From a virus: 7,107 nt of DNA. The stretch lies in IMG/VR virus record IMGVR_UViG_3300008224_000199; one strand, given 5' to 3'. The translations under genes and the position numbers were made by a program. The notes under the pieces are model-generated. The model had not been told where the DNA came from. It did not search any database and was given only the letters and a program-made list of their open reading frames with translations. Shown one piece after another: positions 1 to 7,107 of this stretch (its first letter is position 1; the number at the start of each line of letters is the position of its first letter).

Positions 1-123
1 ATAAGCGAATTATTAAAAGAAGAGGGCGTATGTAAATCGATTCAAGCTGCTAATGCTACGTCTTCTTACTATTTCATGTGGTTACAGGGTCAAACTTTTG
101 ATCTTAAAAAAACACAGGTTAGG
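1..123. repeat. Terminal redundancy, copy 1 (identical to 6985..7107). This is the signature of a circular genome linearised with overlap.
   Basis: Base-by-base comparison shows ataagcgaattattaaaaga...aaaaaacacaggttagg at both window ends. It is a 123-nt direct repeat with an offset of 6984 nt. Confidence 0.95.
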
Positions 124-294
124 ACTCATCGTGCAAGACTTCGTAAGTTAAATATTGATATTGCTGAGTCTTGCGATATTACAAAACATACTGCTGTAAG
201 AATTAAAGAAGTTAGAGAAATTGAAGTATCCACCCTTGAGACTCCAGAATGGTATCAGATGCCTAAAAAGTCTCATTTACGATTGGTGGCTTAA
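1..294 (+). CDS. Replication initiation protein (Ff gpII-like), C-terminal part. It continues 6136..7107 across the circular junction.
   Basis: Frame 1 is open from base 1 to TAA at 292-294. Bases 1-123 duplicate 6985-7107 in the same frame, so the full ORF is 6136..6984 plus 1..294 = 380 aa. The ORF-track entry 76..294 is only the stretch after an internal Met. Confidence 0.85.
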   Translation: MSELLKEEGVCKSIQAANATSSYYFMWLQGQTFDLKKTQVRTHRARLRKLNIDIAESCDITKHTAVRIKEVREIEVSTLETPEWYQMPKKSHLRLVA

Positions 295-494: not shown

Positions 495-869
495 ATGCTA
501 ATAATTGAATTTGAAACTAAAAATACTGTTGATGATGATTTTCCTAATAATCGTGCTGATGCTAAACCGGGTGCTAAATGGTATGTAAGAAATCAACCTT
601 CTTTACTTTTTAAATCGGCTTCTAAATATCCTGATAAGTTTTTATTAAATTTGTCTTTTTCTTCTTCTGAAAATGAACAAAAAAGTATTGGCGGTTTTAC
701 AGAGGGTCGTTATTTTCTCGATGATGAAGCTTTTTTTCTTGATCCTCGTGATCGTAATAACCCAGCTTGTAATTTTTCAAAGTTGGTACCTGTTACCAAT
801 GCTTCTATTGATTCAAGGATTCAAGAGTTAAAAGATTTAAAGCTTTCTCTTGGTTCTAAGGTTATTTAA
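495..869 (+). CDS. ssDNA-binding protein (gpV / RstB-like), 124 aa
   Basis: It sits directly after the initiator gene, as gV does in Ff and rstB in CTXphi. A purine-rich SD (aaagagag) lies upstream. The sequence parallels M13 gpV as I recall it: MLIIEFETK / MIKVEIK, KYPDKFLLNL / EYPVLVKITL, EGRYFL / PGLYTV, SKLVPV / LRLVPA. Confidence 0.6.
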   Translation: MLIIEFETKNTVDDDFPNNRADAKPGAKWYVRNQPSLLFKSASKYPDKFLLNLSFSSSENEQKSIGGFTEGRYFLDDEAFFLDPRDRNNPACNFSKLVPVTNASIDSRIQELKDLKLSLGSKVI

Positions 870-932: not shown

Positions 933-1124
933 ATGAAAAAATCTACACGCGTTCTTGGTGGTCTTGGTTTAGCTTCTGCTGCTTCTGCTTCAATGGCTGC
1001 TGTTGATGCTGGCGTTACTACTGCTTTAACTGCTGCTGGTACTGACGGTGCTACAGTTGGATCGGCTGTTTTAGTTGTAATCGTTGGTATTGCGGCTTTT
1101 AAATATATTCGTCGCGCTCTTTAG
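933..1124 (+). CDS. Major coat protein precursor (gpVIII-like), 63 aa
   Basis: A signal peptide MKKSTRVLGGLGLASAASASMA is followed by a ~41-aa mature peptide. That peptide has an acidic/small N-terminus (AVDAGVTTALTAAGTDGA), a hydrophobic core (VGSAVLVVIVGIAAF) and a basic DNA-facing C-terminus (KYIRRAL). This is the classic inovirus coat architecture. Confidence 0.85.
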   Translation: MKKSTRVLGGLGLASAASASMAAVDAGVTTALTAAGTDGATVGSAVLVVIVGIAAFKYIRRAL

Positions 1125-1486: not shown

Positions 1487-1555
1487 ATGGATGTTCCTAA
1501 CTTACTAATAATATTTTCAATTGTGGGGGCTGTATGGATCGCTATAAGCAATTGA
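1487..1555 (+). CDS. Possible 22-aa hydrophobic micro-protein (MDVPNLLIIFSIVGAVWIAISN), a candidate gpVII/gpIX-type cap protein
   Basis: The ATG is 1 nt after the preceding TAA (tataaaATG), and agaaggg lies 9 nt upstream. The peptide is a single hydrophobic helix. It overlaps the gIII-like start by 22 nt in another frame. It is too short for statistical support. Confidence 0.25.
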   Translation: MDVPNLLIIFSIVGAVWIAISN

Positions 1556-2763
1556 AAATATTTTTAACTTTTGTATTATTAACTTTTTCTAATTCTGCTT
1601 TTTCTGTTCCTGCTGGTTATGTTTCTTATTTACAAACAATATATTATCAAAATTGGGTAAATGCTGGGGGTTATGCTGCTTCTTGTCCTGATTCCCCTCA
1701 ACCTTTTACTCAAGAGGAGGGGGGTTTGACTTATGTTTATTGTGAAGATCCTAACCCAGATTGTTTACCTGAGCAATATAGAGATCCTGTGACTCAAGAA
1801 TGTATTTTTTCTCCCGATTGTGGCTCTATTAATTATGATCCTGATGGCTTTTACCCTGACGGTTTTTGTCCTAATTTACCCGTTAATGCTGATTCTCACC
1901 CTAGTATTAATTGTCAATTTCCTGAAGGTGTTGCCGCTGTTCCTGAATGTACTCTTCAAGAATGTTCTGATGGTTCTCTTTTGAATCAATTTTCAACTTG
2001 TCCATCTCCTAAAGAATGTTCTGATGGTTCTGTTGTTTATGGTGCTAGTGCTAATTGTCCGCCTGAATTATTCTTATGCTCGAATGGTGAGACTGTTTTA
2101 TCTTTAGATCAATGTCCCAGTGCTACTGAAGATGTAAAAACTTGCTGGGATTTCACTGTAGTTCCTCTTAGTTTTGATTGTGCTTTGCAGCCCATTGACA
2201 ATGGAACGCCTGTTGATCCTGAAAACCCTTTAAAAATTTGTCCTGATGGTTCCCAGATTGACGCTTTAACTCCTTGCCCTGTTTTGGTGACTGGTAGCTC
2301 AAATATTAATGATACTTCTACATCTTCGGGAAGTGAAACAACTACAACAACTACAACTAATTCTGATGGTTCTACGTCTACTTCAACTTCAACAACAACA
2401 ATCAATGAAACAACAGAAATTAATTTAGATGGTTTAAATAGTCGCTTAGATAATATTAGTAAAAACACGTTTGATGCCGCTAAATCAGGGCGTGAAATTG
2501 CTGATTATATGATCGAACCTTTTACTGATTCTTTTACGTCTGATCCTGTAACTACCGAAGAAATACCTTTTACTTTTGCTCCTGTTTCTTTGTCCTCTGG
2601 TACGGGTTGCCCAGCTCCTCAAACATATTCTATGTCTTTTGGTTCTATGACTTTTAATAATCAGCCGATTTGTGATTTTGCTAGTGGTATTAATTCAATA
2701 GTTTTGGCTGTTTGTTCAATGATTGGTGTTTATATCTTAATAGGAGGTATTAGAAATGCTTAA
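1534..2763 (+). CDS. Minor coat / host-adsorption protein (gpIII-like), 409 aa
   Basis: The signal peptide MDRYKQLKIFLTFVLLTFSNSAFS is followed by a Cys-rich N-terminal region and a Thr/Ser linker (SSGSETTTTTTTNSDGSTSTSTSTTT). The C-terminal domain has a Cys pair followed by a TM anchor (GCPAP...ICDFASGINSIVLAVCSMIGVYILIGGIRNA), as in M13 g3p. Its position after the coat genes is also consistent. Confidence 0.8.
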   Translation: MDRYKQLKIFLTFVLLTFSNSAFSVPAGYVSYLQTIYYQNWVNAGGYAASCPDSPQPFTQEEGGLTYVYCEDPNPDCLPEQYRDPVTQECIFSPDCGSINYDPDGFYPDGFCPNLPVNADSHPSINCQFPEGVAAVPECTLQECSDGSLLNQFSTCPSPKECSDGSVVYGASANCPPELFLCSNGETVLSLDQCPSATEDVKTCWDFTVVPLSFDCALQPIDNGTPVDPENPLKICPDGSQIDALTPCPVLVTGSSNINDTSTSSGSETTTTTTTNSDGSTSTSTSTTTINETTEINLDGLNSRLDNISKNTFDAAKSGREIADYMIEPFTDSFTSDPVTTEEIPFTFAPVSLSSGTGCPAPQTYSMSFGSMTFNNQPICDFASGINSIVLAVCSMIGVYILIGGIRNA

Positions 2764-3040
2764 CGCTTTAAAGCTTTTTTTTGTTGGTTTAGTTGATACT
2801 TTTGGAGCTAAAGTTTTAGCCTCGTTAGGTATGGGTTTTATTTCTTATGCTGGTTATGCTGCTGTTGTTGATACTGTCATAAGTACAGTTCAAGCTAATT
2901 TTTCTGGGATTGGTGGCGATACTCTTTCTTATATTACGCTTGCTGGTTTTCCCACTGGTTTTGGTATTATTCTCGGTTCTGTTGCTACCCGTGCCACTTT
3001 AGCGAGTTTATCTAAATTAGGTAAATTGAGTCCAGTATGA
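2756..3040 (+). CDS. Minor coat protein (gpVI / Ace-like), 94 aa hydrophobic
   Basis: The protein is strongly hydrophobic and Gly/Ala-rich with several TM-like segments. It lies between the gIII-like and Zot-like genes. Its start overlaps the gIII-like stop (ATGCTTAA) and its stop overlaps the next start (ATGA), which indicates translational coupling. Confidence 0.65.
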   Translation: MLNALKLFFVGLVDTFGAKVLASLGMGFISYAGYAAVVDTVISTVQANFSGIGGDTLSYITLAGFPTGFGIILGSVATRATLASLSKLGKLSPV

Positions 3041-4230
3041 TTAATTTAATTACAGGTGTGCCAGGTTCGGGTAAATCTGCCTATGCTTTAACTGTAATGT
3101 TAAAGGAAATAGAGCAGGGCAGACCGTTGTTTGTTCATGGTATCCCTAACTTAAAGATTCCTCATACTTTAGTAGTTTGTGATTCGCCTACCTGTGAAGT
3201 TTGTCCTAAGCCACCTGTTGAACCTATTGCGCCTGTTGAGCCTCCTGCTGATTCTCCTTTTTTCCTTTTTTATGATTATGATACTGATTTACGTAATTAT
3301 GAAAGAGAATTACATGGTTATAATGTTTTAAAAAACTCTTTTGATTCTTTGTTACGTGCTGACCAGTGGCATCTGTGGGCACCAGATGGTGCTTTATTAT
3401 TTTATGATGAAGTACAAAATGTTTATAGACCAGTTTCTTCTAGTGCAAAGATTTTACCCAGTATTGCAGCATTTGAGACTCATAGACATAAAGGCTTAGA
3501 TTTTTACCTCGTTACACAGTCACCGCTTTTAATGAATGCTAATGCAAGGCGTTTAACTGGTAAACATATCCATCTTAGACCAACGTGGGCGGGTCGTTTT
3601 CAATATGAATTTCCTGAATGTAACGATAATACTAAAAATACTTCTTCGGGCGTTAAAAGTTCTTATAAATTAAATTCTAAGGTTTTTTCTTTATATAAAT
3701 CTGCTTCACTTCATACAAAACAATCAAAGAAAATCCCGTCTGTTGTTTATGGTTTGGTTGCTATTTTCTTTATATTTGGTTTATTGGCTTATAAATTATC
3801 TGACCGTTTTGAATCTGTTGGTCAACCGGTTGCGGTTGCTTCGCCTGTTTTAAGTCCTTCATCTATTCCTTTAAAATCAAAACCTTTTAAACCTTCTTTA
3901 AATGATCGTGATTTATTTTCTGTTTCTAAATCTAAAGTTACATTTTTAGATAAATTAATGAATGATTATCGACCACGCCTTTCCGCCTTTGTTGCGCGTA
4001 GTGGCTTTGGTGGTTTAACCGGTTATGTTGAGTTTTATCAAAATAAAAATTTAGTCGAGGTTTTTAGTTTTGATGAATTACACGGTTTAGGGGTTGCAAT
4101 AGTTAAAAAGTCCTATGGTGTTGATCTTGTAACAAGTTTCGATTCTTATCCTGTTTCGAGTTGGTATTTGCCTAAGCCCAAACAAAAATTTAATTCAAAA
4201 CCACAAAAGGTAGCTTCTAATGACTCCTAA
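3037..4230 (+). CDS. zot: Assembly ATPase, Zot / gpI family, 397 aa
   Basis: Walker A is GVPGSGKS (aa 7-14) and Walker B is ALLFYDEVQNVYRP (compare Zot AFLFIDECGRIWPP). FETHRHKGLDFYLVTQSP matches Zot FDMHRHHGWDICLTTPN. KKIPS precedes a single TM segment (VVYGLVAIFFIFGLLAYKL), followed by a periplasmic C-terminal domain. Confidence 0.9.
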   Translation: MINLITGVPGSGKSAYALTVMLKEIEQGRPLFVHGIPNLKIPHTLVVCDSPTCEVCPKPPVEPIAPVEPPADSPFFLFYDYDTDLRNYERELHGYNVLKNSFDSLLRADQWHLWAPDGALLFYDEVQNVYRPVSSSAKILPSIAAFETHRHKGLDFYLVTQSPLLMNANARRLTGKHIHLRPTWAGRFQYEFPECNDNTKNTSSGVKSSYKLNSKVFSLYKSASLHTKQSKKIPSVVYGLVAIFFIFGLLAYKLSDRFESVGQPVAVASPVLSPSSIPLKSKPFKPSLNDRDLFSVSKSKVTFLDKLMNDYRPRLSAFVARSGFGGLTGYVEFYQNKNLVEVFSFDELHGLGVAIVKKSYGVDLVTSFDSYPVSSWYLPKPKQKFNSKPQKVASNDS

Positions 4231-4752: not shown

Positions 4753-4787
4753 TTTTTTTCCTTTCTAAGTTTCTCTAAGTTAGTTGT

Positions 4788-4865
4788 AGTATATACCTAA
4801 ACACTTGCTTTGTCTAGTTAAAGTATATATTAAAACCACCTAAAACAACTAAAAAAGTATATACC
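4788..4865 (-). promoter_or_regulatory. Promoter/operator region of the minus-strand operon, with three evenly spaced AGTATATA(C/T)(C/T) sites
   Basis: agtatatacc is at 4788-4797, agtatatatt at 4822-4831 and agtatatacc at 4856-4865. The centre-to-centre spacing is exactly 34 bp, and sites 1 and 3 contain the perfect palindrome GTATATAC. On the minus strand the middle site overlaps -10-like TAATAT/TATACT. A tctaagtt direct repeat (4764-4771, 4774-4781) lies in the leader. Confidence 0.45.
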
Positions 4866-4943
4866 TTTTCTAGCTCTTTAGAGCCTGTTTAAGCGTCTTT
4901 TTCTCTACCTTTACCGCTAGTACCTAAAATCAATTATCGTCAA

Positions 4944-5191
4944 AATCCTTACTTATCAATAACTTACGAATCCTTTAAAATCAATAACTTACATCATTTT
5001 TATACTTGTAACATTTAATCAAGTATTGAATTGAAAACAGACGAGCCTAGCCCACATTCTTCCTTTCACCTTCGATACTCTCATAAAATAAAACCTGTAC
5101 TTATTTCGATTCCTCATAATTTCGCCTGTTTGATTTTATGTAACAGTAATCAACTTGAATCCTTACAATTTCGCCTGACCCCATAAAATAA
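4944..5191. repeat. Iteron-like direct-repeat field in non-coding DNA
   Basis: atcaataacttac occurs at 4955-4967 and 4980-4992. A 21-mer, ga(t/a)tcct(c/t)a(t/c)aatttcgcctg, occurs at 5108-5128 and 5157-5177 (49 bp apart). cataaaataa occurs at 5082-5091 and 5182-5191 (100 bp apart). aatccttac occurs at 4944-4952 and 5158-5166. Confidence 0.6.
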
Positions 5192-5280
5192 GAACAAAAA
5201 CCACTTCACACTAACAAATGCCTTTTTTTAGAAATGATATTCGTGATTTCGTTTACAGGTAAAACATAAGTAAACATTAA

Positions 5281-5337
5281 GACGATTGACGACGAATGAC
5301 GACGACTCACGGAGGAGGATGGAGGAGGATTGAGGAT
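5281..5337. repeat. Purine-rich short tandem repeats (TGACGACGA-type followed by GGAGGAGGAT-type)
   Basis: The sequence reads gacgattgacgacgaatgacgacgac, then ggaggaggat ggaggaggat tgaggat. It is a locally GC/purine-rich island in an otherwise AT-rich intergenic region. Confidence 0.7.
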
Positions 5338-5380
5338 TTTTTCTTTTCCAGCGGTCGCGGTTGCCATTGATAAGAATGTG

Positions 5381-5426
5381 AGAGTCCACATACTATAACC
5401 AGTGGACTCTTGTCCCGTATCTGGAA
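5381..5426 (+). other. (+)-strand replication origin core (Ff-type nicking hairpin plus initiator-binding region)
   Basis: There is a perfect 9-bp inverted repeat, agagtccac (5381-5389) / gtggactct (5402-5410), with a 12-nt loop, followed by tgtcccgtatctggaa. Compare the f1/M13 origin as I recall it: GAGTCCAC-GTTCTTTAATA-GTGGACTCTTGTTCCAAACTGGAAC. The genome also encodes a gpII-like initiator. Confidence 0.65.
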
Positions 5427-5519
5427 TTTAGCACATATATTTTTCTTTTTTGTTTACAAGTCGTAGTGTTATCGGTATAAGCAAAAAATCGCAATATCGT
5501 GTTTTGGGGGTTTGGTGCG

Positions 5520-5617
5520 AACTTCGCATAATGTGATTTGGTCATTATGTATAAAACAGTGCGTTGAAAATTTTAGGCAATGCGCTGTTTTTTACATAGT
5601 GGCTATTATGCGAGGTT
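5520..5617 (+). other. dif-like attP: two inverted XerC/XerD-type sites able to fold into a forked hairpin (CTXphi-type)
   Basis: The outer stem pairs 5520-5532 (aacttcgcataat) with 5605-5617 (attatgcgaggtt), 12/13 bp. The inner stem pairs 5546-5566 with 5578-5598 (18 Watson-Crick, 2 G-T and 1 mismatch in 21). An asymmetric bubble of 13 nt (5533-5545) against 6 nt (5599-5604) separates them, and the loop is 5567-5577. The arms resemble dif: TTCGCATAA (XerC side) and TTATGTATAAA (XerD side). Confidence 0.6.
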
Positions 5618-5782
5618 TTTTATTTTTTCTTCTTTACGATCACAAGCTTTTAAATAGTCTTAATCTTTAATTCATTCTGAAAAAGATATACCAAAAAAAA
5701 TAAGGTTTTTCTCTTTGGGGTTTTACTCTTGCCTTATAGTGAAATTTCTTCTAAAAAATACTGTTTTCAAAAAGGTCTTTTT

Positions 5783-5809
5783 AGTACGGGTTCTTGTGAC
5801 ACCCGTACT
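5783..5809. terminator. Perfect 9-bp hairpin downstream of the minus-strand RHH gene; possible terminator or ssDNA structural element
   Basis: agtacgggt (5783-5791) pairs with acccgtact (5801-5809) across a 9-nt loop. On the + strand it is preceded by ggtcttttt and followed by ttagtt. On the minus strand a T5 run comes only 9 nt after the stem, so it is not a canonical terminator in either direction. An adjacent palindrome ttcgga-ct-tccgaa lies at 5814-5827. Confidence 0.3.
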
Positions 5810-5832
5810 TTAGTTCGGACTTCCGAATTTAT

Positions 5833-6048
5833 TCATGACATTGTGGTGTTATTTTCAACTCCTGCTTCTATTCTTTTTAGTCCTTCTTCTATTATTTCGT
5901 GTAGTAGTTCGCTTTCTGTAAGTGGCTTTCTATTTGAGTTTATAAGTATTTTATTTATTTCTATGCTTTTTTTCCTTAGGTTTTCTTCTTCATTTTTTTT
6001 TAGTCTTATGCTTTTCATTTCTTTCACCATATAAATATTATTTTTCAT
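5833..6048 (-). CDS. Small ribbon-helix-helix repressor, divergent from the initiator gene (RstR-like position)
   Basis: The C-terminal ~60 aa of ORF 5833..6153 read as beta strand (KSIRLK), helix A (NEEENLRKKSIEINKIL) and helix B (TESELLHEIIEEGLKRIE). Candidate starts are Met at 6048, 6030 or 6018; the last has GGTGA 5 nt upstream. The 6049-6153 extension would run through the initiator promoter and start codon, and it looks non-protein-like. Confidence 0.6.
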   Translation of the reverse strand: MKNNIYMVKEMKSIRLKKNEEENLRKKSIEINKILINSNRKPLTESELLHEIIEEGLKRIEAGVENNTTMS

Positions 6049-6051
6049 CTT

Positions 6052-6130
6052 ACATGTGAATTTGTTGACATGTTTATGTGTTTTTGTGTACATTACTACA
6101 TACTGTATTAATGTACACATGTGAATTTGT
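6052..6130. promoter_or_regulatory. Divergent promoter/operator region between the RHH repressor and the initiator gene
   Basis: The 14-bp direct repeat acatgtgaatttgt is at 6052-6065 and 6117-6130. There are multiple ACATGT/TGTACA palindromes (6069-6074, 6087-6092, 6112-6117, 6117-6122). On the + strand, -35 TTGACA at 6065-6070 is followed after 18 nt by TACATT at 6089-6094. Confidence 0.5.
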
Positions 6131-6135
6131 ATTTT

Positions 6136-7107
6136 ATGTTTGAATTTATCCAATTAATTGACGGGCTACACATGTATCAAGATCATGAGATAGCTTTACC
6201 TTTTTTAGGTGATACCCGTGAAATTACTGTTGATGTTCAAACGGGCGATTTTCTTGCAGAGCGTCAGCCTAGCTATACTTATGAGGGTTCTTATACAACT
6301 TCTATTTTGATTAGGCTTTCTGGTCAACGTGTCACTATTTCTCGTGGTAATCCTTCTAAAGTAAATCGTTTAGATAATTTGTTTGGTTACAAGACTGTTG
6401 ATGAATGCGTTTTTGTTTATAACCAAATTCTTTTGTCTTTGGGTTTACCGCCTTTTACTCGATGTACTAAGCGTTGGCAGTTGATGGGCGAGGATGGTAA
6501 AAAAGTTAGAAATTTTAGTAATGGTGCGATTATTACTGAAATTCACACAACCACTAATAAATGTGTAGGTAAAGGAAATGTTAGGGATTATTTACGCGGT
6601 ATTTCTACTCAACGCTTAAGAAATTCTATCCCGCATTTAATGCCTAATGGTTGTACTGTTCAATGGCTTTCTAAATTGGGGAATGCTTCCTTAGTTCATT
6701 CTTCTGTTTATGACAAAGCGAACGAAATTGAATTACATCAACTTCCTAAAATTAAAAGGGCTTTTGGTGAAACATCTGACGAATACAAACAATTAAAAAA
6801 AGTTCATGAATACTGTTTAGAAAAAGGCGTTGCACGTTTTGAAAATAAAATAAAAGCAAGATCATTAAAAAGAGATGAACTCCAATACTGGGGGTTATCC
6901 GACTATTCAATACTAGATAAAAAACAATTAGAATTTTTAAATATAGATAAAAAATTAAGTGTGAATGCTATGACTATGCAAACAATAAGCGAATTATTAA
7001 AAGAAGAGGGCGTATGTAAATCGATTCAAGCTGCTAATGCTACGTCTTCTTACTATTTCATGTGGTTACAGGGTCAAACTTTTGATCTTAAAAAAACACA
7101 GGTTAGG
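6136..7107 (+). CDS. Replication initiation protein (Ff gpII-like), N-terminal 324 aa. It runs off the window end and continues at 1..294.
   Basis: My own translation from ATG 6136 has no stop to 7107. It is missing from the ORF track because no stop falls inside the window. Motifs match M13 gpII as I recall it: NPSKVNRLDNLFG / SPAKVLQGHNVFG, ITEIHTTTN / ISRIDATFS, GVARFENKIKARSLK / GLVRFEARIKTRYLK. Confidence 0.85.
   Translation, partial: MFEFIQLIDGLHMYQDHEIALPFLGDTREITVDVQTGDFLAERQPSYTYEGSYTTSILIRLSGQRVTISRGNPSKVNRLDNLFGYKTVDECVFVYNQILLSLGLPPFTRCTKRWQLMGEDGKKVRNFSNGAIITEIHTTTNKCVGKGNVRDYLRGISTQRLRNSIPHLMPNGCTVQWLSKLGNASLVHSSVYDKANEIELHQLPKIKRAFGETSDEYKQLKKVHEYCLEKGVARFENKIKARSLKRDELQYWGLSDYSILDKKQLEFLNIDKKLSVNAMTMQTISELLKEEGVCKSIQAANATSSYYFMWLQGQTFDLKKTQVR
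6985..7107. repeat. Terminal redundancy, copy 2 (identical to 1..123)
   Basis: This is the same 123-nt string as the window start, and it is in frame within the initiator ORF. Confidence 0.95.

Follow-up and report, generated by a model that had tools for sequence, protein, structure and literature searches.

Phages of the CTX class integrate with the help of XerC and XerD, two recombinases of the host, at the chromosomal dif site, and do so as folded single-stranded DNA (ssDNA). Their attachment site, attP(+), is about 150 nt long and is formed by two inverted sites that lie 90 bp apart, with a central region of 12 bp in attP1 and of 5-7 bp in attP2. The (+) ssDNA is the substrate, XerC performs the first strand exchange, replication completes the irreversible reaction, and phage is made by rolling-circle replication from tandem copies (PMC4246890, PMC3442271). 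The attP(+) of the Vibrio cholerae phage CTXphi was reported by Val et al. (2005; summaries in PMC3442271 and PMC4246890), and RS1, YpfPhi and CUS-1Phi are listed as related members of the class (PMC4246890). YpfPhi of Yersinia pestis is reported to have an inverted XerC/XerD pair, to integrate at dif with regeneration of dif at the 3' end and to occur in tandem repeats (PMC4266046). The subject of the present analysis is a forked hairpin at positions 5520-5617 of the IMG/VR virus record IMGVR_UViG_3300008224_000199, a stretch of 7,107 nt that is referred to as the window. A sequence-only reading of the window had proposed that this hairpin is a CTXphi-type attP which exploits the host XerCD system. 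This proposal is supported by the match to the host dif site, a phage-host junction at dif and compensatory changes in related phages. The hairpin is very probably the CTX-type attachment site of an integrase-less filamentous phage of a Methyloprofundus-like host.

The window phage resembles CTXphi in several respects. Both lack an integrase and carry a pair of inverted sites upstream of a divergent small gene and an RstA-like replication initiator (Rep). One spacer is over-long, with 13 bp here compared to 12 bp in CTXphi. The second spacer measures 6-7 bp here and 5-7 bp in CTXphi. In both cases, the bases beside the XerC arm match dif, integration occurs at dif with the sites at the left end, and arrays form. 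The structural genes, however, are only remotely related to those of CTXphi, the host is a methanotroph with a dif of the single-chromosome type, and no toxin cargo is present. YpfPhi and CUS-1Phi (E. coli K1) are likewise filamentous CTX-class phages from outside Vibrio and can be set beside the window by their description, but their hosts and gene content differ from it. Phages of the VGJphi and TLCphi types also use the host XerCD and integrate at dif. However, theirs is a single double-stranded attP of 28-29 bp that reacts reversibly, whereas the window has two inverted sites and a junction in the site with the 13-nt spacer. The definition of the VGJ type, i.e. a single double-stranded attP of about 29 bp that forms both junctions, does not describe the window. 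At the sequence level, the window shows the features of the CTX class, namely the lack of an integrase, inverted sites with spacers of 13 and 6-7 nt, the fold, homology to dif at the XerC arm and a junction at dif.

The forked hairpin and the host dif locus

The hairpin is composed of two dif-like sites in inverted orientation, site A on the 5' side and site B on the 3' arm (Table 1). An inverted-repeat search recovered both stems, namely 5520-5532 with 5605-5617 (92 % complementary) and 5543-5566 with 5578-5601. Exactly two copies of the motif TCGCATAAT are present in the window (5524 on the + strand, 5605 on the - strand), compared to an expectation of 0.04, and none of 200 shuffled sequences contained two or more copies. 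Folded as ssDNA, the + strand of 5500-5640 reaches -24.6 kcal/mol, compared to -8.7 +/- 2.3 kcal/mol for shuffled sequences (z = -6.8, 0/200 as good), and the - strand of the same region reaches -16.9 kcal/mol (z = -4.1). The long imperfect hairpin that had been expected for the + strand as ssDNA is thus recovered, and it is a strong one.

The fold consists of a 13-bp XerC-arm stem (5520-5532/5605-5617), a 5' bulge, an overlap duplex and the XerD-arm stem with its extension. In the minimum-energy structure, the bulge covers 7 nt (5533-5539, GTGATTT) on the 5' side beside the XerC stem and is followed by a 6-bp duplex (5540-5545/5599-5604) containing three G.T wobbles, which correspond to A.C mismatches on the - strand. 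An outer XerC-like stem and an inner XerD-like stem, with a 5' spacer of 13 nt and a 3' spacer of 6 nt between them, had been read from the sequence alone and were confirmed. The same reading had described the central region as unpaired, 13 nt against 6 nt. The spacer lengths hold, but the region is not wholly unpaired, as the fold contains the 7-nt bulge and the wobble duplex instead.

The window phage was found in an integrated state in an 11-kb contig (L003, ENA ERZ534229), in which positions 638-7607 are 100 % identical to the window from 5520 across the circular junction to 5505. The left flank comprises 637 nt of host DNA ending in ...GCTCTTATTACCT AACTTCGCATAA (also as ...TTATTACCT AACTTCGCATAA), after which the sequence continues with TGTGATTTGGTC..., corresponding to the window from 5532 on. 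The join between host and phage accordingly reads ...AACTTCGCATAA|TGTGATTTGG (window 5531/5532). The flank encodes a GIY-YIG-like protein with a 99 %-identical homologue on large chromosomal contigs. An assignment of L003 1-637 to another mobile element was considered and rejected; the segment is host chromosome with a resident mini-element.

The empty site was recovered from contig L071 (JGI 3300025673). Its flank is 100 % identical to that of L003 over 457 nt, followed by a 140-nt indel, and its site reads ...GCTCTTATTATCT AACTTCGCATAA TGTATA TTATGTTAAAT TAATGATT. Variants of the empty dif in the same arrangement are present in L070 and in L061, a contig of 121 kb with 39 % G+C, in which the GIY-YIG-like gene is followed by GACTTCGCATAA TGTATA TTATGTTAAAT; the empty site was thus obtained independently from three samples. 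L003 (occupied) and L071 (empty) diverge directly after ...CGCATAATGT, with the crossover within AACTTCGCATAATGT (window 5520-5534). A divergence after AACTTCGCATAATGT is characteristic of a top-strand exchange at the XerC arm. Across the join, only 15 nt are common to host and phage, which would not suffice to create a chimera in k-mer assembly.

The XerC arm of site A is identical to that of the host dif at 11 of 11 positions (12 of 12 including the preceding A), and both XerD-like arms match the host XerD arm at 8 of 11. The central bases beside the XerC arm are TGTGAT in the phage and TGTATA in the host dif, with the first three (TGT) being identical. Similarity of the arms to the host dif had been anticipated, and the recovered site in L071 and its variants in L070 and L061 bear this out. 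The expectation of integration at dif and not elsewhere agrees with the only integrated copy found, which lies at the dif locus and not in a tRNA gene, with its junction on the border of XerC arm and central region (L003 637/638). Two further expectations failed. The arms had been predicted to be split between opposite ends of the prophage. CTX-type integration does not predict such a split: only the XerC arm of site A was exchanged, and both sites remain together at the left end of the prophage. The adjacency of the half-sites had also been taken as a sign of the replicative or virion form or of a tandem junction, but the hairpin is 100 % intact in the integrated copy as well (L003 638-735), because the XerC arm of the host is identical to that of the phage.

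The CysN protein encoded in L061 shares 87 % identity with its counterpart in a Methyloprofundus sp. metagenome-assembled genome (MAG) and about 80 % with those of mussel methanotrophic symbionts and M. sedimenti. Based on these sequences, the host is a marine, Methyloprofundus-like methanotroph of the Methylococcales. In the 20 kb surrounding the host dif, the GC skew was uninformative with regard to the terminus. The indel between the occupied and the empty contig corresponds to L003 458-597, a stretch of the host flank that is absent from the otherwise identical L071.

The hairpin in related phages

Homologues of Rep were collected, and their loci were taken from metagenomes and GTDB genomes. 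The hairpin was searched for with a simple pattern (regular expression) first, and a covariance model was built from ten hairpins. Of 46 related genome loci, 34 carry it upstream of Rep according to pattern or covariance model, and every match lies on the Rep-coding strand. The hosts of these hairpins belong to the Methylococcales, Pasteurellaceae, Enterobacterales and Cellvibrionales. The closest genomic Rep stems from a Methylomarinum MAG (71 %). Applied to the window, the covariance model gives 85.5 bits for the + strand, compared to 39 bits for the - strand.

In the alignment of the ten hairpins, the arms TTCGCATAAT, TTATGT, ACATA and TTATGCGA are nearly invariant. The stem extension varies in sequence while its pairing persists, and it holds most of the compensatory changes. 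Overall, 94.7 % of the alignment cells are paired, and changes on both sides occur in 16 of 34 pairs. None of 500 shuffles reached any of five covariation measures, and slid controls were paired to 33-49 %. The hairpin is therefore kept by compensatory changes in related phages, as would be expected from the proposed role. When 29 distinct hairpins were folded singly, most showed a similar layout, the majority with an unpaired 5' stretch of about 5-7 nt.

Relatives of the window phage were also found in arrays at dif. A complete array is carried by a 122-kb metagenomic contig (L005/L006), whose Rep is 63 % identical, and terminates in a canonical dif. From the host DNA onwards, it comprises phage copies 1 and 2, two copies of a second element, and GTTCGCATAA TATATA TTATGTTAAAT. 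The second element is 2.9 kb long and encodes Rep and helix-turn-helix proteins. The junctions read ...GGTTCGCATAA|TTGGTCG... for both phage copies and ...GGTTCGCATAA|TGTACCTGC... for the second element. Each element begins directly after the XerC arm ...GTTCGCATAA (...CGCATAA) and carries its own long spacer and hairpin. Tandem copies are frequent among the relatives (L005/L006, L025, L035, L039). A further contig (L004, ENA ERZ25069837 ctg25831, 20.5 kb) contains three head-to-tail copies of a 7.65-kb relative with a 70 %-identical Rep and has no host flank; one of the copies has a longer pIII-like gene (483 versus 451 aa). This contig may represent a long-read concatemer or a tandem array.

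A layout from hairpin to dif is found in 17 of these genome loci, from isolates or MAGs, with the hairpin upstream of Rep and, about 2-8 kb downstream, a canonical CGCATAA-N6-TTATGTTAAAT. Their hosts are Haemophilus, Mannheimia, Actinobacillus, Rodentibacter, Bisgaard taxon 45, Gilliamella, Cellvibrio, Rosenbergiella, Pectobacterium and an unclassified gammaproteobacterial MAG. A regenerated dif at the end of the array is thus seen in relatives, both in L005/L006 and in these genome loci. Units of 1.9-2.4 kb, composed of just the hairpin, a small open reading frame (ORF) and Rep, lie directly against dif in Gilliamella, Mannheimia, Actinobacillus and Haemophilus parahaemolyticus (Table 1), in two cases (L040 and L046) downstream of a full-length prophage. 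These units, which occur in relatives and not in the window, resemble the RS1 satellite of CTXphi and are putative satellites.

Proposed integration route and alternative explanations

In the Inoviridae, the strand bearing the morphogenesis genes is the packaged strand. Since all morphogenesis genes of the window lie on the + strand, with three small ORFs on the - strand, the + strand is presumably the one that is packaged. On this strand, the inverted dif-like sites would fold back to form the XerC stem, the 7-nt 5' bulge, the wobble overlap and the XerD stem, and host XerC and XerD would bind the resulting mimic of dif. XerC, with a predicted cleavage point between 5531 and 5532, would swap one strand at this position with the host dif (AACTTCGCATAA|TGTATA TTATGTTAAAT), and the common TGT beside the XerC arm could stabilise the exchange. 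Replication would then resolve the pseudo-Holliday junction. At its start, the prophage would have the host XerC arm followed by the 13-nt spacer of the phage, which would be a dead site. At its end, the XerC arm of the phage would be joined to the central region and XerD arm of the host, giving a regenerated dif (modelled attR ...GGGGGTTTGGTGCGAACTTCGCATAA|TGTATATTATGTTAAATTAATGATT), so that further elements could stack. New virions would stem from rolling-circle replication driven by Rep, with tandem copies or the replicative form as the source. Unlike for CTXphi, these mechanistic steps, including the ssDNA substrate, catalysis by XerC only, resolution by replication and irreversibility, are all inferred for the window phage.

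Several observations weigh against a CTX-type attachment site at 5520-5617. The hairpin is shorter than that of CTXphi (98 versus about 150 nt) and its sites are closer together (32 nt versus about 90 bp). Among the 29 hairpins folded singly, the + strand is the more stable one in 18 and the - strand in 11 (mean difference -1.4 kcal/mol, p = 0.03), and the strand asymmetry is large only for the window phage and its nearest relatives. The attR of the window phage, i.e. the regenerated dif, was not recovered, and two scans of viral contigs, for the phage tail together with dif and for dif together with the host flank, gave no match. Assembly around the right end is affected by a second phage, phage B, a 6,921-nt circle (L008/L009) with a different Rep and coat protein and a homologous hairpin. 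L003 passes from the window phage (phage A) into phage B at the end of an 83-nt exact repeat common to both, and window 5506-5519 (14 nt) is absent from it. Other contigs with the phage tail gene end at about window 5442-5462, inside the repeat shared by A and B. For the join between A and B in L003, a true array, a homologous recombinant and an assembly chimera are all conceivable, and its interpretation as a prophage array was downgraded in view of the 83-nt exact repeat at the join. Lastly, a Phage_integrase-family gene (387 aa) with adjoining KfrA-like genes lies about 2.2 kb from dif in L061. An exact-motif scan with TTCGCATAATGTGATTTGGT gave no match in GTDB genomes and, in viral and metagenome contigs, matched only phage B.

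That this tyrosine recombinase, or any recombinase other than XerCD, integrates the phage has very little chance of being correct. The gene seems to belong to a separate integrated element and is not phage-borne, the arms are half-sites of the Xer type, and the layout from hairpin to dif recurs at the canonical dif across Pasteurellaceae, Enterobacterales and Cellvibrionales. Integration as double-stranded DNA in the manner of VGJphi and TLCphi, with one of the two sites acting as an ordinary dif-like attP and the hairpin being incidental or having another role, is improbable. The natural candidate for such an attP is site B with its dif-like 11-6/7-11 geometry, but the junction is located at the XerC arm of site A and not in site B, which is intact inside the prophage. 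Site A has a spacer of 13 bp, and the comparable 12-bp spacer of CTXphi makes a double-stranded site unusable (PMC4246890). Although VGJ-type elements are common (PMC4246890) and the measurements made here do not directly separate single-stranded from double-stranded substrates, the compensatory changes keep the pairing between the sites and in the stem extensions, which would be needless for a double-stranded attP, and the hairpin always has the same orientation towards Rep.

In filamentous phages, large intergenic hairpins act as origins and packaging signals. The hairpin could accordingly be a signal for replication, packaging or termination, in which case its likeness to dif would be irrelevant and the host-phage join in L003 an assembly artefact. 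This explanation is highly improbable. L003 certainly contains one doubtful join, the one between phages A and B; however, the host-phage join has only the short shared stretch described above, and the empty site comes from independent samples. The identity of the XerC arm to that of the host, the two copies of a motif that is hardly expected once, and the 17 isolate or MAG loci in which hairpin and dif lie at opposite ends also speak against it. A T-run follows the hairpin at 5616-5630, but it is not conserved in the relatives, and the reading as a terminator was rejected for this reason.

With the CTX-type interpretation, the conclusion that the window phage is a further case of a known trick, and not a new mechanism, is well supported. 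It would extend the folded-ssDNA integration of CTXphi to phages of marine methanotrophs (Methylococcales) and would be the first CTX-type case tied to a methanotroph host with evidence from both the occupied and the empty site. To our knowledge, this mechanism has been demonstrated experimentally only in Vibrio and has been proposed for YpfPhi and CUS-1Phi. Within one Rep clade, whose members infect Pasteurellaceae, Enterobacterales, Cellvibrionales and Methylococcales, this hairpin occurs widely and is under structural selection. Its covariance model could serve as a signature for the lifestyle, prophage borders and host dif of uncultured integrase-less inoviruses, and the natural variants in bulge length and in the wobble-rich overlap provide a panel for the needs of XerCD in a folded substrate. 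The design common to these hairpins comprises the XerC stem, a 5' bulge of 5-7 nt, a wobble-paired overlap and the XerD stem, always on the Rep-coding strand. It is conceivable, but rather unlikely, that this attP(+) design is the ancestral integration module of a very large If1/IKe-related Rep clade in at least four orders of Gammaproteobacteria, and that minimal, Rep-less dif hitchhikers of a hitherto undescribed kind, such as the two hairpin-led units at the host dif locus, use the same ssDNA route when mobilised by a helper phage.

Genome content and further observations

The genome of the phage is circular or tandem and 6,984 nt long, because window 1-123 is an exact repeat of 6985-7107, i.e. 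a 123-nt terminal direct repeat. Its G+C content is about 33 %. As genes for Rep, coat, pIII-like, pVI-like and Zot proteins are present without a recombinase, the window is, by its gene content, an inovirus, that is, an integrase-less filamentous phage. The absence of an integrase gene noted earlier was confirmed, as neither an integrase nor another recombinase was detected among the 12 ORFs scanned with Pfam and PHROGs. A megablast search of the whole window against GenBank phages gave no match, and in a tblastn search against phages only distant relatives of Rep were found (at most 49 % identity), the nearest being If1 and Alteromonas phage phiAFP1 (47-49 %).

Table 1. Coordinates of the attachment site and other features of the window, and of hairpin-ORF-Rep units in related loci
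Feature	Position	Strand	Basis or remark
Whole attP(+), forked hairpin of two inverted dif-like sites (very probable)	5520..5617	+	fold, covariance model, covariation
Site A, XerC-arm-like half-site ACTTCGCATAA	5521..5531	+	11/11 identical to host dif XerC arm
Site A, central region, 13 nt, TGTGATTTGGTCA	5532..5544	+	sequence and fold
Site A, XerD-arm-like half-site TTATGTATAAA	5545..5555	+	8/11 match to the XerD arm of host dif, TTATGTTAAAT
Stem extension (5556-5566 with 5578-5587) and 11-nt loop (5567-5577)	5556..5587	+	pairing kept among relatives
Site B, 3' arm of the hairpin	5588..5616	-	XerC-like ACCTCGCATAA (5616-5606), 6-7 nt (TAGCCA/C), XerD-like (C)TATGTAAAAAA
Conserved double hairpin	5784..5826	+	GTACGGGT..ACCCGTAC, then TTCGGAC.TCCGAA
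Divergent small ORF, 106 aa (95 aa as called in L003)	5833..6153	-	regulator-like position; putative
Replication initiator Rep, G2P/RstA-like, 380 aa	6136..7107, via circular junction into 124-294	+	Pfam PF05144 and PF05155; PHROG 702, E = 5e-85
Rep gene, 3' end	1..294	+	bases 1-123 duplicate 6985-7107
124-aa ORF directly after Rep	495..869	+	position of the expected ssDNA-binding gene; label putative
Major coat protein	933..1124	+	Pfam Phage_Coat_B, E = 1.8e-15
pIII-like adsorption protein	1534..2763	+	position and weak PHROG matches to C-terminus
pVI-like minor coat protein (DUF2523)	2756..3040	+	Pfam
Zot/pI assembly ATPase	3037..4230	+	Pfam Zot; PHROG 197, E = 5e-55
Hairpin-ORF-Rep units in relatives	L016 3305-5240; L034 134-2566; L040 10556-13019; L043 9149-11735; L046 10608-13034		

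The order of attP, a divergent small repressor, the initiator and an ssDNA-binding gene had been compared with the rstR/rstB region of CTXphi. The gene positions agree with this comparison, but the labels 'repressor' and 'ssDNA-binding' have no support from families, PDB or structure. The 124-aa ORF gave no match in Pfam (to E = 1), PHROGs or PDB (to E = 10), and its single-sequence AlphaFold2 model, with a predicted local distance difference test (pLDDT) score of 33.7, was unusable for fold comparison. For the 106-aa ORF, the sole match was PHROG 5642, a family of unknown function, with no significant match in Pfam (to E = 1) or PDB (to E = 10). The pIII-like protein consists of a Cys-rich N-terminal part, a Ser/Thr-rich linker and a C-terminal anchor, and its receptor-binding part is covered by no family match. 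The N-terminal half contains repeated C-x-DGS/NGE-like motifs (e.g. ECSDGS.., LCSNGE..), and a long Ser/Thr tract precedes the anchor.

The double hairpin between the attP hairpin and Rep is composed of GTACGGGTnCnTGTGACACCCGTAC, TTT and nCGGACnTCCGn, with compensatory changes in the second stem. It is found at the same place in L005 (about 9650-9700), L011 (2271-2321) and L056 (811-864), and also in the Rep-less host mini-element beside dif (L003 389-440; L061 about 9990-9937, - strand). It is a candidate for the nicking or recognition site of Rep or for the (+) origin. A search of Rfam gave no match for the window.

The host dif locus itself contains two small hairpin-led units upstream of dif (L061 11546-9785, - strand), with the same layout in L062-L068. 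The first unit (1.1 kb) has a forked hairpin with the decayed arm AACTTCACATAA and a gene for a secreted protein with a TSP_C domain. The second (0.65 kb) has a forked hairpin, the GIY-YIG-like gene and a double hairpin resembling the candidate Rep site. Fossil elements, or Rep-less ones exploiting Xer, are possible explanations for these units. Directly adjacent to dif on its opposite side, L061 6382-9606 contains two KfrA_N-domain genes, the 387-aa tyrosine recombinase gene and the long AT-rich palindrome TACGATAATATCATAATTACATATTATCGTAATATCATAATT; this region looks like another integrated element, possibly a plasmid-like one.

Phages A and B share a non-coding module of 170 nt (window 5337-5505, L008 6669-6837) that is 96 % identical, with the last 83 nt being exact. 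The module is thus common to two inoviruses whose genes, Rep and coat included, are mostly different, and it confounds assemblies. It includes a stem-loop GAGAGTCCAC..GTGGACTCT at about 5381-5412. The module looks like a horizontally exchanged cis-acting one, perhaps a (-) origin or a packaging signal. The non-coding tail of about 770 nt shows a strongly negative GC skew (to -0.43, window 4771-5200), imperfect inverted repeats (4771-4802 with 4817-4848) and the purine-rich repeat GGAGGAGGATGGAGGAGGATTGAGGA at window 5311-5337.

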